Counted from the stretch's first letter, positions 2,294-29,421 are shown. The stretch: DNA of 64,000 bases from Octopus vulgaris (GCA_951406725.2 OX597814.1:181040001-181104000), one strand, 5' to 3'. A program made the numbers and translations. The notes: generated from the sequence alone by a model not told the origin.

Positions 2294-2386
2294 CAAAGAA
2301 GACAGAACAACTTCAACAACAACATCAACAACAACAACAACAACAACAACGTCAAATCTCAGGGATTAGTGAAGACCATATCACAG
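2294..2386 (+). CDS. PPP3CA: Candidate 93-nt polyglutamine cassette exon of calcineurin A
   Basis: tgtag acceptor after U-rich tracts, CAG|gtacct donor (weak). Symmetric phase 1, open: xKKTEQLQQQHQQQQQQQQRQISGISEDHIT. Confidence 0.55.
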
Positions 2387-5300
2387 GTACCTAAGCTATT
2401 GGTATTTCTGTTTACTATCAGATACAATTTAGTTCTGATTAGATTAGCATTGGCTGGCCCTTTTTATTCCAATGTCTCACTTAAAAACTGAGCAATTTTT
2501 ATGTGGTATGCTCTCTCAGGGCAGCTTAAGCAGTTTCCTCAAAATGTTTTCCTCAAAATGTTTTCCTCAAAATAGCCAAGATATATGATCAGATTGGTTT
2601 TCAAGTTGCCTTTAAGAAAGTGTTCGTTAATACATTTTGAGACATTTGAATAAAATTTTGCCTTTTCATTACTTGCTTCTGGACATCATATCAAACAACA
2701 TTAGAATATGTATTGTAACTCCATATTTTACTTCATTGTATGATATGGTTAACTGGATATCAATGTGTTGAGGACCTTATTTGAAATCAAACAAGTTTCA
2801 TTGGATGGAATTGGCTATAAATGAAAGAGAAAATGATTTATTTCATGCTGAAAACATTAGAAACAAATATTTTTTAATAAGTATATAATTCTTTAAAGAA
2901 CAACTTACCTTCTGAATATAAAAGTATGATGGGTTTCCAACAAACTTTATTTACAAAATAATCAAATGTTGCATTAAATATAAGAGAAGCAGTTGTGTAT
3001 TTTTTTTTAGTCGTTACCTTCATCAAGTTTCAGTTACAACTCATTTCTGATACAAGGTTTCCATCATGAAAGATATTTGATTTTTTTAGTCTCTTCTTTT
3101 CCATCCCAATAATGAACTATATTTTTCTGAAAAAAATTGATAAATTATATGTGAAATATAATGTGTCTTGTATGGCACAACAATGCAGAGTGGACTATAA
3201 TAACTGTTATAATTTAATTATCCATAGTCTGATATAATATTTCAGAATATAAAAATTCCTTCTTCAGATATTGCTAGGAATTGATCAAGTCACTACTATA
3301 ATCAGTTTATTTGGATTATTTGAAAATAGTTTTTATCTTATACATACATATATATATATATATATATATATATATATATATATATATAATGATTAAATAT
3401 TTAATATTTTAATTTCTGTCTTGAACTAATGCTCACTCCTTAACTCTCATGAAGATCTGTGGATCAGCTAAATGGTGCTAGTTAGTTGCTCTTGATAGTT
3501 CTCATGCATAACTGATTGTCCCTTAAAGTTTTGCTTACTACTATGCATAAAATAATGAAAATCCTATCAGGTATTAATTAGGTACCATCAGAAATAATTG
3601 TATAATATACTTATATTACAATGAAGACAACTTCAAATATATCATTTTGCCTGCTTACAACTTGCATTAACATTTTTATCATTGTATAGTGTCGATTATA
3701 TTTACCATTATTTTTATTTCAACTTAGCAAATATTAACCTTCTTTGTATAAGACTTTCAAAAGTTAAATATTTTGGAGTTTTTTCTCCCTTATTAATGCA
3801 ATATTTGTTGGTCAAAATCTCTTCTTGTAATTCCAGTCTGATATTTTTTCTTTCGTGGAAGATAATTTTGTGCATAATTTCACATGTCAATGGAAATTCT
3901 TAAAATTCTGAAAAATTTTCTGAAAGTACTTAACTTTCTCTTGAACCCAACACCTGAACCTGTAACCTATCATGCAATGTTTTAGAAATAGATTTTCTTT
4001 CAGTTAGACTTAGTGTCAATAGTTATACTAGTTGTTTTCTAAATATATTCATAAATTATCTGTAATGATTTTTTTTTTTTATTATTATTATTATTATTAT
4101 TATTAAATAAACTCTGGACTTAAACTACCATCCAGTTTAGTTATATAGTACTGATTGTTTTCTTACTGTTGGACATGTTCATGTCAGTCCTCTTGTTGAC
4201 ATAACTTTTATTAGGTACAGTATTTTAAAATATATTCCTCTTGCTAGGAACATATTTTAAAAGGGGTTGTTTTAAGTTTATATATAATGCAAATTATATT
4301 TTCTAACGGGAGGTTAACTACCATTTTTAATCTACAATTGATATTTGTAACAATGAATTTATAGATAACATTGAGAAATTGGGTTATTAGAATAAGTTTT
4401 TCATATTCCCTGTGAAGACTTGGGGATTGTAAATTCAGTAAAATAATATGATATACATTTTCCGATTATTCACTTTATATCTTTCTTTCTGATATTTTCA
4501 TTATTTCTACTACATTCACTCTCTCTCACTCTTTCTCTCTCTTTCTCTCACTCTCTCTCTCTCACTCTTTCTCACTCACACACACCTATACACTGCTTTC
4601 TCTTTCACTTTCTCTTTCCCTCCCTTAGTTACATCTCCCTCTTCCTCCTCTCTCCCTCCCTTCAGTATTTAAACGCATTCACTTTAGTATTGGCTCAAGC
4701 CCTTTCCTAATGATTATATTGAAATGTCTTTTCCTTATTCTTCAAAAACATCCCCTCAAAATATAGCTATATAAATAAAAGATATGCCAAAATTTCTTTA
4801 TAGTGTTCTTAGAATGAAATGGAAGTAGTGGGCTTTTAGATTTATATTTTTATAATTTTCTCTTATTTTGGATCTAAAATTTGTTTAATAGTTTTAAAGA
4901 TAGACATAGGTTAATTGGTGATTTCAAAGGCTTTATAATATTATTTTTCGAGTTTTCAACTCTTTCTGTTCACATATACACATGACTCTTATCTATAAAA
5001 AAAGTCATTCTACTGATAATTTTATAAAAAATATCAAATTATTAATAACATATATTTATATTAATCAAGATACATTGTAAAAATTATACTGAGAGCTTTT
5101 TTCTGATATAAATGGAAACCCTTCATTTGCTAGATACTCTTGGAGTACTTTCTTGATTTTCAATCAAGTTCTTGTTATCTATTTTGTATAATCATTTATA
5201 CTGATAACTGTTGATATTTTAAATCAATTGGAAAAGATTATCATTTAAAATATTTTAATTATGCCAAAGTTACAAGACAATTGATTTCACTTGTTGCTGA

Positions 5301-5832
5301 TTATCATTACAAGACTACTGAATCAAAAATTTTAGTCCCACTACTTCCCATGCAAGAAGGTGGTCTTAATTGACCAAAAGATAATACCTCCCACAGGCCT
5401 CCATGATAAACCCTTCATGGATTTGATTTCAAAGTGAATAGCTCTTTCCTTTTTATACATAAGCTTATGGATTCTTTGCTGCTCAAAATTTGTCAAAAGT
5501 AGTTTTAAAATACCTTTATCAAATATACACACCTATGTTTTAATCTTTTTTTTTTTTTTTTTTTGTTTTTTCCTTTTCTCCCAAGTTATTGAACAATGTG
5601 TTAGTTTCCATAATCCCATTCCACCACTCCAACACAAACTCCCTATTCCTTTCACTTCTTCCTTATCCCCACCACTCATATTTAAAACATTATTGATCTG
5701 TCAATAATCACTCTCTCCCTGCTTTTGGCACATAACTTGCAAATGCATTTCCTTAATGCACCATATTTTTCTCTTTCATCTGGATCACCTTGCAACCCTT
5801 TTTGCATGCCCACTCACAATTTTACTGGTCAG

Positions 5833-26878: not shown

Positions 26879-26914
26879 CTATCGATAATCCGAACGAGGA
26901 ACCAGCTATCAAAG
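26879..26914 (+). CDS. PPP3CA: Candidate 36-nt cassette microexon of calcineurin A (AIDNPNEEPAIK)
   Basis: U-rich tract and ttcag acceptor, AAG|gttagt donor, symmetric phase 1, open in frame. CpG-containing island within an AT-rich intron. Same intron position as the vertebrate alternatively spliced 30-nt exon. Confidence 0.8.
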
Positions 26915-29373
26915 GTTAGTTTTCTATTTAGGATTGTATAGTTGAGAGACACTGGCATGTGCACGGCAGTCATAGGTAACTGTTTGTTTATTGGGGGTGC
27001 AAAGAGCAGCAACAAAACAATGGTGCAACACTTAAGTGCAGCAGGTTTGGGTCTAAATATCTCCATTATTTTTCTCTTCAATACACTGCATAATATAAAA
27101 CATCTTCATATTTTAATCAACCATGCTATCTAGCACAATCAGAAAATAAGTCACTACTGCTAATTGTGAATAACGTATTTTTTCCTACAATTCCTCACAT
27201 AGTTACATTCAGGGAAGCAGTACATGGTAATCTAAATGAGGAATTTGAAGATCAATGCCAATTAACTATATCCTTGCAGCTTTCACTCTGGCTTTTCCAT
27301 CCTAAAAGAAACTTTGGAGAAGATATTTCAGCCACTGCTTCAATTTCCATTGCCACTAAAATCTACTCCTAAAATCACTACATTGGTCCAAGAGGCATTT
27401 AGAAACCCATTGTTTAAAACATTACAACAAACTAGACATAATGGCTTTATCACTTAAAATAAATAGCACTCCAAAATGGGTTATTAGAATGTGTGAGGAT
27501 TAAGTTTGAAATTGATACAAAGAAAAATATTTGAAATTTATAAATTTACCTTTTATACCTCCTGGCACATTGCTAAAATTTACTCTAGGCTAAATATATC
27601 TACTAACTGCTTTATAAATATATGTAGAATAATTTCCTAAATAATAATTTTTTTAATTATTTCTGTTTAAAAGAAACACGAGAAAAATAAAATAAATACT
27701 TTTACTATATATTTTAACATGTTTTAATATTAGTTCTACTAAAATCTAAAAATTATGATATTTATGATGTAATTCACTCTAAAATATGCTATTTACATTT
27801 CTCAGCTTAATAATAAAATACTGCCAAAGTTGGAGAGACAATTTAACTTCATTGAGATTTTACCACATTACTGAAGGCTCCAAATACCCAGTGATTATAA
27901 ACCTTGAAATTCTAAAACATCGATGTAATGAAGTAAACAAACTAGTTGCTGTGATGAATTTCTCTAGCATTTTGTATAACCATCATAATATCATACAAAT
28001 GCATTATAATATGGATAAAATGAAAATGTAGTTGAACTTTAAAAATTTATGAGCCAAAATTTAGCTTTGACTCTAGATAGACCATTATATAAATGCCCAT
28101 CCCATCAATTATTAATAAACCATTTATTTAATCATTTAAATATTATATAATCTTCCCAACTTTTAAAGTTTTTTTTTTTTTTTCGTTTCATTTTTATTTT
28201 TTTGTTTCTTATTATTCACTATAATATACTTTCACTACACTAAACAAACTTTGTATTCTTTTATTGGCTGCTATTCAGTTCATGTTTCCTTGTTCAGTGC
28301 AAGATAAAACTATATGAAATAATTTAAACACTTATACTTTACAATATGAAAGTTATGTTAGAACCCATAATAGGTTTAAAATATATATTCAAAATAGTTA
28401 ATTATTGAGTAGGACATTTTAAGGGTTAAGGATGTTGTTTGTGTGGGACTTTTTTTTTTATTCTGTATTCACAAAAAAATTATTAGCATTTATGTTAATT
28501 ACTTTAAATATTTCTAAATCCTAATTATTTTTTATATAAACTAATTCGAATTAAGACTACTAATTTTGAAAAGCTCTAAAACAAAAACTGCTAGATTTTT
28601 AACTTAAATTTTATTATTTTAATGTTTTGGTTTTTTTTTTTTATTTTGCTAATTCAACTTTTATTATTATGTTACTTTGGCAAAGAATACCCAAGAAGCA
28701 CTTTTAAAATCCCTATTTGATGTAATAGTTCATATCAAAATAATTCTCTATCGGTAAAATGTTCATCCTACATATGAACTTGAACTTAAAGGATGTTTTT
28801 TCAACAGTTCAAATCAGACATAGTAGATAATATATTAATAGATCAATATGAATAACAGACTGTCCAAGTTGGCATGATTATTATACTAGAGAAGATTAGT
28901 CTTCTCAGAATCAGGATTCTAAAGTACTCAGTTAACTTCAAATAGCAACAGCCTAATGTTATTTCTGTTGGTTACAGAGATTACTTTAAATCTCACTACA
29001 TGTTTGACTTGGCAAAAGTCTTATTCATGTAGTGCATTCTGCTAACTAGAGTTAGTACGTAATCAGCCATCTAATTGTTTAATTGCTTCACATGTTTTTA
29101 CTTTTACATTATTCAAATAACAACGGTTCAGACTGATTCTTTGGTTTCCATTTGCTTATTTAAATATTTATTTGGCTTTGCTTTTAGCAAAATTCATCAA
29201 ATACAAGTAATTAGATTAATTGTTCCTTAAAAAAAAAACTGTCATTAGCTTTCATATAGTACCTGCTTTCTTTTGTGTTTCATCACGATTGCTGCTTCTG
29301 CTGCTGCTAGAAACTAATTTTTTTTTGTTGTTTTTGTTGATGTCTTGACTGTAGAAATAACTGTTGTTTATAG

Positions 29374-29421
29374 CTTCCTGTCTGGTTTTAGGCTGCTTTC
29401 CAAATTCAGTGTTGTCACACT
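29374..29421 (+). CDS. Candidate 48/30-nt cassette exon of calcineurin A with two in-frame acceptors
   Basis: Acceptors tatag|29374 and tttag|29392 share donor ACT|gtaagg. Both lengths are multiples of 3 and open in phase 1: ASCLVL-GCFPNSVLSH. Confidence 0.35.

Follow-up and report, generated by a model that had tools for sequence, protein, structure and literature searches.

The calcineurin A gene and its linker introns

The window analysed here is a stretch of 64,000 nucleotides of Octopus vulgaris DNA, and the 3' end of the Octopus calcineurin A gene lies inside it. A model of 13 exons, built over the window and the 200 kb upstream of it, gave the exact translation of O. sinensis isoform X8 (P0030, 483 aa), and P0025, which is an exact product of this locus, matched chain A of 1AUI at residues 4-489 with an E value of 2e-284. 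The octopus protein also matched PF00149, and the alignment to the human chain together with the exon model showed that the catalytic metallophosphatase domain is present, as is the order calcineurin-B-binding helix, calmodulin-binding region, autoinhibitory domain. As judged from these alignments, the locus is calcineurin A (the PPP3C/PP2B catalytic subunit). The linker-1 intron, which follows the constitutive exon L002:2234-2311 and starts 7.7 kb 5' of the window, is phase 1 and 28,714-28,723 nt long, and the linker-2 intron is phase 1 and 11,054 nt long, which bears out an earlier note on this DNA where two phase-1 introns of more than 21 kb and of 11 kb had been described. The exons and candidates in this region are as follows.

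L002:3656-3664 (6.3 kb upstream of the window), + strand: 9-nt microexon adding A-E-L, from gene models
1..21025, + strand: in-window share of the phase-1 linker-1 intron, from exact spliced translation to P0030
2294..2386, + strand: 93-nt cassette encoding a 31-aa glutamine-rich insert, from protein isoforms of two Octopus species
5833..5844, + strand: 12-nt microexon adding G-F-N-T, from protein isoforms of two Octopus species
17475..17477, + strand: 3-nt candidate, unsupported
21026..21110, + strand: calmodulin-binding exon with acceptors 21026 (P0026, P0212, P0213, P0214) and 21035 (11 other models)
21709..21806, + strand: constitutive exon with a phase-1 donor, carrying the end of the calmodulin-binding region and linker 2 up to its middle, from the exon model
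26879..26914, + strand: 36-nt cassette in linker 2 encoding 12 aa, acidic, with two prolines, from protein isoforms and run junctions
29374..29421, + strand: 48/30-nt candidate with acceptors 29374 and 29392, unsupported
32861..32988, + strand: last coding exon, with the autoinhibitory domain and the stop codon

The joint 21110>21709 was present in two of the four sequencing runs. The calmodulin-binding exon had been described as entered at 21026, and this acceptor, which adds A-Q-P, is indeed used in 4 of 15 Octopus models, but the second acceptor 9 nt away at 21035, used in the remaining 11, had been missed. One locus for the calmodulin-binding exon was found in the genome and therefore splicing would be the main source of calcineurin A variety in octopus.

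Optional exons in both linkers

The 36-nt exon is spliced in. The GT..AG joint 21806>26879, which skips 5,072 nt, was found in three of the four runs, from three of four studies; none of these runs is recorded as RNA and none carries a tissue label, but the GT..AG joint shows that spliced molecules were present. Ten of the 15 Octopus models include the exon and five skip it, so that linker 2 exists in a long and a short version, and its peptide occurs in all four of the more divergent cephalopod-like Logan proteins, identical in three and with two changes in the fourth. When aligned to the human chain of 1AUI it falls at residues 447-456, within the calmodulin-induced distal helix 441-458. In run X13 the neighbouring exons were covered but the bin that holds the 36-nt exon had zero depth, which would fit skipping but is no proof of it.

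The linker-1 exons of 9, 93 and 12 nt are, on the evidence of gene models and the genome, real. The 9-nt exon, missing from the earlier list of linker-1 cassettes, is carried by O. sinensis X1-X4, by older O. bimaculoides models and by Logan protein P0038, and its A-E-L peptide is found in one of the four cephalopod-like Logan proteins. The 93-nt exon is exact in O. sinensis X1-X3 (P0027-P0029), and in O. bimaculoides P0033 and P0035 its glutamine tract is one residue longer while the other residues are identical; outside the repeat the agreement with O. bimaculoides extends over two reading frames. Its splice sites are weak. No polyglutamine exon was found outside Octopus when the linkers of the 120 listed protein matches were compared, and none was evident among 90 short matches, six of which were fully read. 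The 12-nt exon, which has a strong donor, is carried by O. sinensis X1 and X3 and by O. bimaculoides P0035, and the 16 intronic codons 5' of it also agree with O. bimaculoides. The O. bimaculoides models that carry the 9-, 93- and 12-nt exons are listed under EukProt only, and since the three NCBI-listed models of this species have none of them, this suggests that inclusion is rare. O. bimaculoides models in a poly-asparagine frame were also considered and were rejected, as they cannot be built from the O. vulgaris genome, where the 226 nt upstream of 5833 are free of AG. Logan protein P0002 has a 7-aa insert in linker 1, for which a search found no equivalent in octopus.

With these four exons and the second acceptor, all eight O. 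sinensis RefSeq isoforms (XP_036363202.1, XP_036363208.1, XP_036363211.1, XP_029637054.1, XP_029637681.1, XP_029638432.1, XP_029639721.1 and XP_029640434.1) were rebuilt letter for letter from the genome. These and the O. bimaculoides isoforms (the XP_014777764-69 series, XP_052828569.1 and XP_052828574.1) contain every real exon and neither the 3-nt nor the 30/48-nt candidate; they are automatic models that come with no tissue or functional description. Linker 1 takes five forms in O. sinensis (none, AQP, AEL, AEL+polyQ and AEL+polyQ+GFNT), each of which maps to AG..GT segments. It had been proposed that the cassettes are included combinatorially, and frame-preserving alternative splicing does occur in both linkers, but the annotated linker-1 forms are nested and, with or without the 36-nt exon, amount to 8 of 32 possible combinations. 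Taken from these models, octopus calcineurin A has the LR1/LR2 splicing-hotspot pattern of in-frame optional inserts in both linkers. An AlphaFold model of P0027 was set aside, its mean pLDDT being 45.7 and its quality low even in the catalytic domain.

Neural microexons of the eMIC/SRRM4 type range in size from 3 to 27 nt. The 9- and 12-nt exons are frame-preserving and lie within this range, and those of 36 and 93 nt are too long for it. The genome has one match to SRRM_C (PF15230), which we take to be the eMIC domain, at 32.6 bits and above the cut-off. Upstream of the 12-nt exon there are three UGC motifs (-26/-30/-42) and one UGCAUG, and upstream of the 9-nt exon a UGC at -54 only. The AG-free zone of the 9-nt exon is 103 nt long, in the top 1.4% of 1,061 YAG sites, and contains a CTAAT branch motif, and that of the 12-nt exon is 226 nt long, in the top 0.1% and the most extreme in the two linker introns; the median is 12 nt, constitutive acceptors reach up to 112 nt, and zone length was examined once the real exons were already known. 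Long AG-free zones are the pattern of eMIC targets in the available part of PMC8797185, and those of the 9- and 12-nt exons may fit it.

Splice scores and the unsupported candidates

In the two linker introns, 1,793 AG..GT segments of 3-150 nt are open and preserve the frame. The segments of 93, 12, 36 and 30/48 nt described in the earlier note are present, and all 192 tested combinations of cassettes stay open. When the 1,793 were ranked with generic splice matrices, the 36-nt exon came 1st (mean number scoring as well in shuffles, 0.4), the 12-nt exon 4th (2.6), the 30-nt candidate 24th (11.8), the 93-nt exon 30th (16.7), the 9-nt exon 37th (22.1), the 3-nt candidate 67th (38.8) and the 48-nt candidate 156th (109.9). 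Splice scores alone single out the 36-nt and perhaps also the 12-nt exon; those of the 9- and 93-nt exons are within chance, and the 30-nt candidate outscores both of these real exons. A first, stricter splice filter had missed every cassette, and the ranking was made with a looser one.

Of the five cassettes originally proposed, those of 93, 12 and 36 nt stand, from protein isoforms and, for the last, the junction in three of four runs, while the 3-nt and 30/48-nt segments most likely reflect chance. Their peptides were found in none of 299 proteins, among which were the 15 named Octopus models and the four cephalopod-like Logan proteins. The 3-nt segment had been given without coordinates, and 17475-17477 is a guess, being the only candidate in the window that passes the filter. 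The AG-free zones of the 48/30-nt candidate are 17 and 16 nt only, and a joint into 29374 or 29392 was absent from the 15 joints shown of 125. In X1 and X2 a single unspliced contig accounts for the depth in the bin 29413-29700 (7.41 and 6.22), X13 (0.41) and X6 (12.6 compared to 7.9) have a small unexplained extra depth there, and the bin 29116-29412 has unexplained depth in all four runs. A DNA search gave 29100-29720 as single-copy. This depth may be compatible with rare use of the 30/48-nt segment. The table of loose read ends was dominated by a repeat near 23.7-24.2 kb. The description of the candidate surroundings as SINE-poor and U-rich does not discriminate: repeats stay at least 250 nt away from every candidate, but the same freedom from repeats is seen in 25 of 41 one-kb bins (self-BLAST, limited to 264 kb), and at the candidates T content is 0.34-0.41 compared to 0.37 overall.

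Comparison with other animals and a proposed role

Splicing of the calcineurin linkers is already known and the octopus exons are already in public gene models. Both linkers are alternatively spliced in mammals, where PPP3CA, PPP3CB and PPP3CC have optional exons 10a (27 nt) and 13 (30 nt), and linker 2 is in C. elegans, as given in the available parts of the published reports (10.1101/124230; PMC12503234). The octopus 36-nt insert aligns at the exon-13 residues and is likewise acidic. Unlike mammals, octopus has three linker-1 cassettes and a tandem acceptor in one gene, with one cassette encoding polyglutamine, and its 12-aa linker-2 insert contains two prolines whereas mammalian exon 13 favours helix. 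The 36-nt exon is probably not the orthologue of vertebrate exon 13, the two having no sequence motif in common and, in the survey below, a discontinuous phylogenetic presence. Among the listed cluster members, to which this survey was limited, the linker-2 insert is absent from all 78 named non-cephalopod mollusc proteins, all 12 hemichordate proteins and both parsed annelid/brachiopod proteins (two more were unparsed), and amphioxus has an insert of its own; among molluscs in these clusters the 36-nt exon is confined to cephalopods. Convergence thus appears more likely than common descent. Models of Mytilus, scallop, oyster, Haliotis and Branchiostoma carry their own in-frame cassettes at the same place in linker 1, singly or together, and the inserts of bivalves, gastropods and amphioxus are unrelated in sequence to those of octopus; going by these models, linker cassettes are not special to cephalopods. 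C. elegans, like octopus, draws its calcineurin A variety through splicing from one gene, tax-6, which has long and short linker-2 forms and a 9-nt optional exon (exon 11, its linker-1 place being inferred), as octopus also has. It differs in that it has 13a and 13bc as mutually exclusive exons whereas octopus has a cassette, and in that tissue pattern and function were measured for the worm gene (PMC12503234) whereas the octopus exons are known from sequence. In the same paper the function of linker 2 is called undefined and the consequences of its variation speculative.

We consider it likely, with a probability of roughly 60%, that the four optional in-frame exons and the second acceptor tune the release of the active site by calmodulin. 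Inclusion would shift the ease with which the active site is opened by calcium-loaded calmodulin. The distal helix 441-458 is required for full calcineurin activity (PMC7456046, available part), and the 36-nt exon would add 12 residues to linker 2 with two prolines that are predicted to break this helix and not extend it; on a helix-cost scale the octopus segment averages 0.64 with the exon included, compared to 0.35-0.36 for the octopus segment that skips it and for the mammalian inclusion segment. A broken helix would be less effective at drawing the autoinhibitory domain away, and inclusion would then yield the form with lower activity. In mouse, forced exon skipping gave more nuclear localisation of Nfatc, which its authors read as the skip form being more active (10.1101/124230, available part). 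For octopus the direction of the effect is nearly a coin toss, because length and helicity pull opposite ways, the human exon-13 residues forming an activity-promoting helix. The linker-1 inserts, of 3 to 38 residues, would move the calmodulin site further from the calcineurin-B helix by making the spacer longer, and probably have a minor modifying effect on access or on the binding of partners. That the 9- and 12-nt microexons are tissue-regulated, possibly by a neuronal factor of the eMIC/SRRM4 type, is about evenly balanced, with their long AG-free zones and the SRRM_C match on one side and the partly muscle-enriched linker variants of mouse and worm on the other. In the open-access literature no paper was found that links exon 13 to the distal helix or describes these cephalopod exons, and in the two octopus forms, with and without the 12 proline-containing residues, nature has set up an experiment on which of the two, linker length or formation of the distal helix, determines activity.

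It could also be, though we doubt it, that function is limited to the 36-nt exon and the AQP acceptor, perhaps with the 9-nt exon as well, the polyglutamine and 12-nt exons being rare tolerated products and linker 1 a hotspot by tolerance and not by function. The unrelatedness of linker-1 inserts between bivalves, gastropods, amphioxus and octopus speaks for such tolerance, as do the weak sites of the 93-nt exon, its O. bimaculoides models under EukProt only and its not being found outside Octopus; but independent annotations of these exons in two species agree in every residue outside the glutamine tract, and the 12-nt exon combines a strong donor with its extreme AG-free zone. Somewhat less probable again is regulation mainly in muscle or development, with the exons acting through partner binding or phosphorylation and not through calmodulin coupling. 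Exon 10a is specific to adult skeletal muscle in mouse and exon 13 rises postnatally (10.1101/124230, available part), and the long linker 2 of TAX-6 is muscle-enriched with phosphosites that matter (PMC12503234), but the possible eMIC-type features at the 9- and 12-nt exons would point elsewhere. The open reading of all 192 combinations, the score of the 30-nt candidate and the eMIC-type domain in the genome could be taken to mean that none of the five cassettes is spurious and that a neural microexon programme combines them freely into dozens of brain isoforms, and very short exons are known to be missed by annotation pipelines, but with no protein carrying the 3-nt or 30/48-nt peptides, ordinary AG-free zones and nested annotated forms this is highly improbable.

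A wider account may be sketched that we regard as speculative and rather unlikely as a whole: coleoids would have independently gained an exon at the exon-13 place that, through its prolines, breaks the calmodulin-induced distal helix where the vertebrate exon builds it, and that yields a damped calcineurin, together with a nested, neuron-regulated linker-1 series that includes polyglutamine, so that a single gene would stand in for three paralogues of vertebrates, and the A-E-L/A-G-L microexon would possibly come from the octopus-abalone ancestor. In Haliotis a 3-aa insert, A-G-L, sits where octopus has A-E-L.

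Optional exons of the two calcineurin linkers

A calcineurin A gene, recognised by motif and homology searches, has its 3' end in the window, on the + strand. A 13-exon model drawn from the window and 200 kb of upstream sequence gave a translation that equals O. sinensis isoform X8 (P0030, 483 aa) exactly, which places the source within Octopus and very near O. sinensis, and the calmodulin-binding peptide was found at one locus in the genome in a search scoring the best candidates only. Linker 1, between the calcineurin-B helix and the calmodulin site, holds a phase-1 intron of 28.7 kb whose first 7.7 kb precede the window, and linker 2, before the autoinhibitory domain, a phase-1 intron of 11,054 nt, which agrees with the two phase-1 introns of >21 kb and 11 kb described in the earlier note. 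Cluster look-ups yielded 15 named Octopus proteins plus four cephalopod-like ones of greater divergence and without species name (Logan proteins), and their linkers correspond to AG..GT segments in the genome.

Optional elements and the evidence for them
L002:3656-3664 (L002, a stretch upstream of the window; ~6.3 kb): 9-nt exon (A-E-L), linker 1; protein linkers
2294-2386: 93-nt polyQ exon, linker 1; protein linkers
5833-5844: 12-nt exon (GFNT), linker 1; protein linkers
21026 and 21035: two acceptors; protein linkers
26879-26914: 36-nt exon, linker 2; protein linkers and a read joint

The linker-1 exons are known here from gene models, and the read joints cover 20800-29700, where three of four runs, from three studies, contain the GT..AG joint 21806>26879. 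Of the five cassettes proposed in the earlier note, those of 93, 12 and 36 nt are real, as judged from protein isoforms and, for the 36-nt exon, also from this joint, whereas the 3-nt and 30/48-nt segments were over-called, their peptides being present in none of 299 proteins. All 192 splice combinations are open when the doubtful candidates are included, and exactly eight equal a stored protein, namely O. sinensis X1-X8; with the real elements alone, 8 of 32 possible forms are annotated. The linker-1 forms are nested, such that polyQ occurs only with the A-E-L exon, GFNT only with both, and acceptor 21026, which adds A-Q-P, only alone, a pattern that short-read model building could have produced or hidden. 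The annotated forms bear out combinatorial inclusion in part.

A second GT lies 5 nt past the donor of the 9-nt microexon (L002:3656-3669, ~6.3 kb before the window starts); its use is implied by the older O. bimaculoides proteins P0001 and P0034, in which the polyQ exon is read in the frame that gives poly-asparagine. With the sequence of this genome, the donor would lead to a stop at 412-447 aa, ahead of the calmodulin site and the autoinhibitory domain, and its product may be a decay-coupled or truncated form. A UGCAUG, an Rbfox-type motif, is located at 5803-5808, 30 nt ahead of the 12-nt microexon, and is one of 15 in the 40-kb region. Unspliced contigs over the intron 3' of the 36-nt exon (26885-27628 and 28656-29700; runs X1, X2 and X6; depth ~2-13) are as expected of pre-mRNA or DNA.

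Candidate segments and chance

The two introns contain 1,793 open, frame-preserving AG..GT segments. By splice score the 36-nt and 12-nt exons rank 1 and 4 (0.4 and 2.6 as good in shuffles), and the 30-, 3- and 48-nt candidates rank 24, 67 and 156 (11.8, 38.8 and 109.9 as good), the 3-nt segment being taken as 17475-17477, a guess at the one meant in the earlier note. Since the real 93-nt and 9-nt exons rank only 30 and 37, a candidate may be real in spite of a low score. AG-free zones, examined post hoc with the real exons already known, part real from doubtful segments somewhat better: they span 103, 226 and 53 nt at the 9-, 12- and 36-nt exons, 33 nt at the polyQ exon, 31 nt at the 3-nt candidate and 16-17 nt at the 30/48-nt candidate, with a median of 12 nt over 1,061 YAG sites. 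Use of the 30/48-nt segment as an exon is unlikely, and that of the 3-nt segment very improbable. A 51-nt open, frame-preserving AG..GT segment at 12966-13016 ranks 2 by splice score; it appears in none of the protein linkers inspected and is probably due to chance.

Conservation and origin

Mammals have optional exons in both calcineurin linkers, and from humans to nematodes linker 2 is described as a hotspot of splicing (PMC12503234); the octopus system is a cephalopod instance of this published hotspot, and its exons are in RefSeq already. The main text of PMC12503234 has no mention of octopus, molluscs or the distal helix, and that of 10.64898/2026.09.05.749416, which describes recurrent convergent gain of tissue-specific exons in 20 bilaterians including O. 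bimaculoides, none of calcineurin. In the literature as available to us, nothing specific was found on the splicing of calcineurin in octopus or molluscs, on microexons in cephalopods, or on exon 13 and the distal helix. Two features keep their interest as natural probes of how the linkers work: the linker-2 exon, which bears prolines and is apparently convergent, and the polyQ insert.

Ten of the 15 Octopus models and all four Logan proteins include the 36-nt peptide. The latter differ from Octopus at 8-11 positions and O. bimaculoides P0032 at none over its 421 residues, from which we infer that they come from non-Octopus coleoids. One of the four (P0038) has the 9-nt peptide, and P0002 has a different 7-aa linker-1 insert with no counterpart in this locus. 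Linker 2 is short in 78/78 named non-cephalopod mollusc and 12/12 hemichordate proteins among the matches listed, these being isoforms of a few dozen species and not independent draws, and inserts peculiar to each occur in linker 2 of amphioxus, vertebrates, horseshoe crabs and two unnamed Logan proteins. Since these inserts are unrelated and linker 2 is short in the non-cephalopod mollusc and hemichordate proteins, convergent origin would be the simplest reading.

Judging from protein models, linker-1 cassette sets are general across these animals, with 6 distinct strings in Mytilus, 4 in Haliotis and 13 in amphioxus (species variants counted). The polyQ exon was not seen outside Octopus among the protein matches listed, and the O. 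bimaculoides models that carry it are listed under EukProt only, which suggests that it is rare. In Haliotis P0201, P0209 and P0211 an optional A-G-L takes the linker-1 place that A-E-L has in octopus; the 9-nt microexon may be homologous there, three residues being weak evidence. In oyster models (P0068, P0071 and others) the calmodulin-binding region begins with either GTIA or GAVA, and two tandem copies of the region are present in Logan P0300, hinting that some bivalves have duplicated, mutually exclusive calmodulin-binding exons.

Predicted effect and possible neural control

In an alignment with the human 1AUI chain, the 36-nt insert stands in for residues counted as 447-456. It contains two prolines, and its mean helix cost is 0.64, compared to 0.35 for the mammalian inclusion form. 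The calmodulin-induced distal helix spans 441-458, and breaking it is reported to lower activity greatly (PMC7456046). Because the insert aligns within this helix and has these properties, its inclusion is predicted to lengthen the tether and break the helix, so that the autoinhibitory domain would more often stay in place. The mouse skip forms, which are read as more active (10.1101/124230), agree with this in direction. The sign of the effect is nevertheless uncertain, because by the human helix data residues of an insert can promote activity too. The linker-1 inserts would likely alter spacing or partner binding beside the calmodulin site.

Neural control of the 9- and 12-nt microexons is plausible because their 3' regions partly resemble the pattern of eMIC targets (PMC8797185) and the genome holds one SRRM_C match over the cut-off (L022, G000:C25:37317492-37317626), likely the octopus gene for an eMIC-bearing splicing factor. 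Contrary to this neural reading, mouse exon 10a (10.1101/124230) and the long worm form (PMC12503234) are described as muscle-enriched.

Elsewhere in the window, open frames resembling fragments of LINE reverse transcriptase or mariner-type transposase were noted by eye at 50799-51578, 60521-61565 and 9771-10406, and similar ones on the minus strand at 8623-9233 and 11928-12239.
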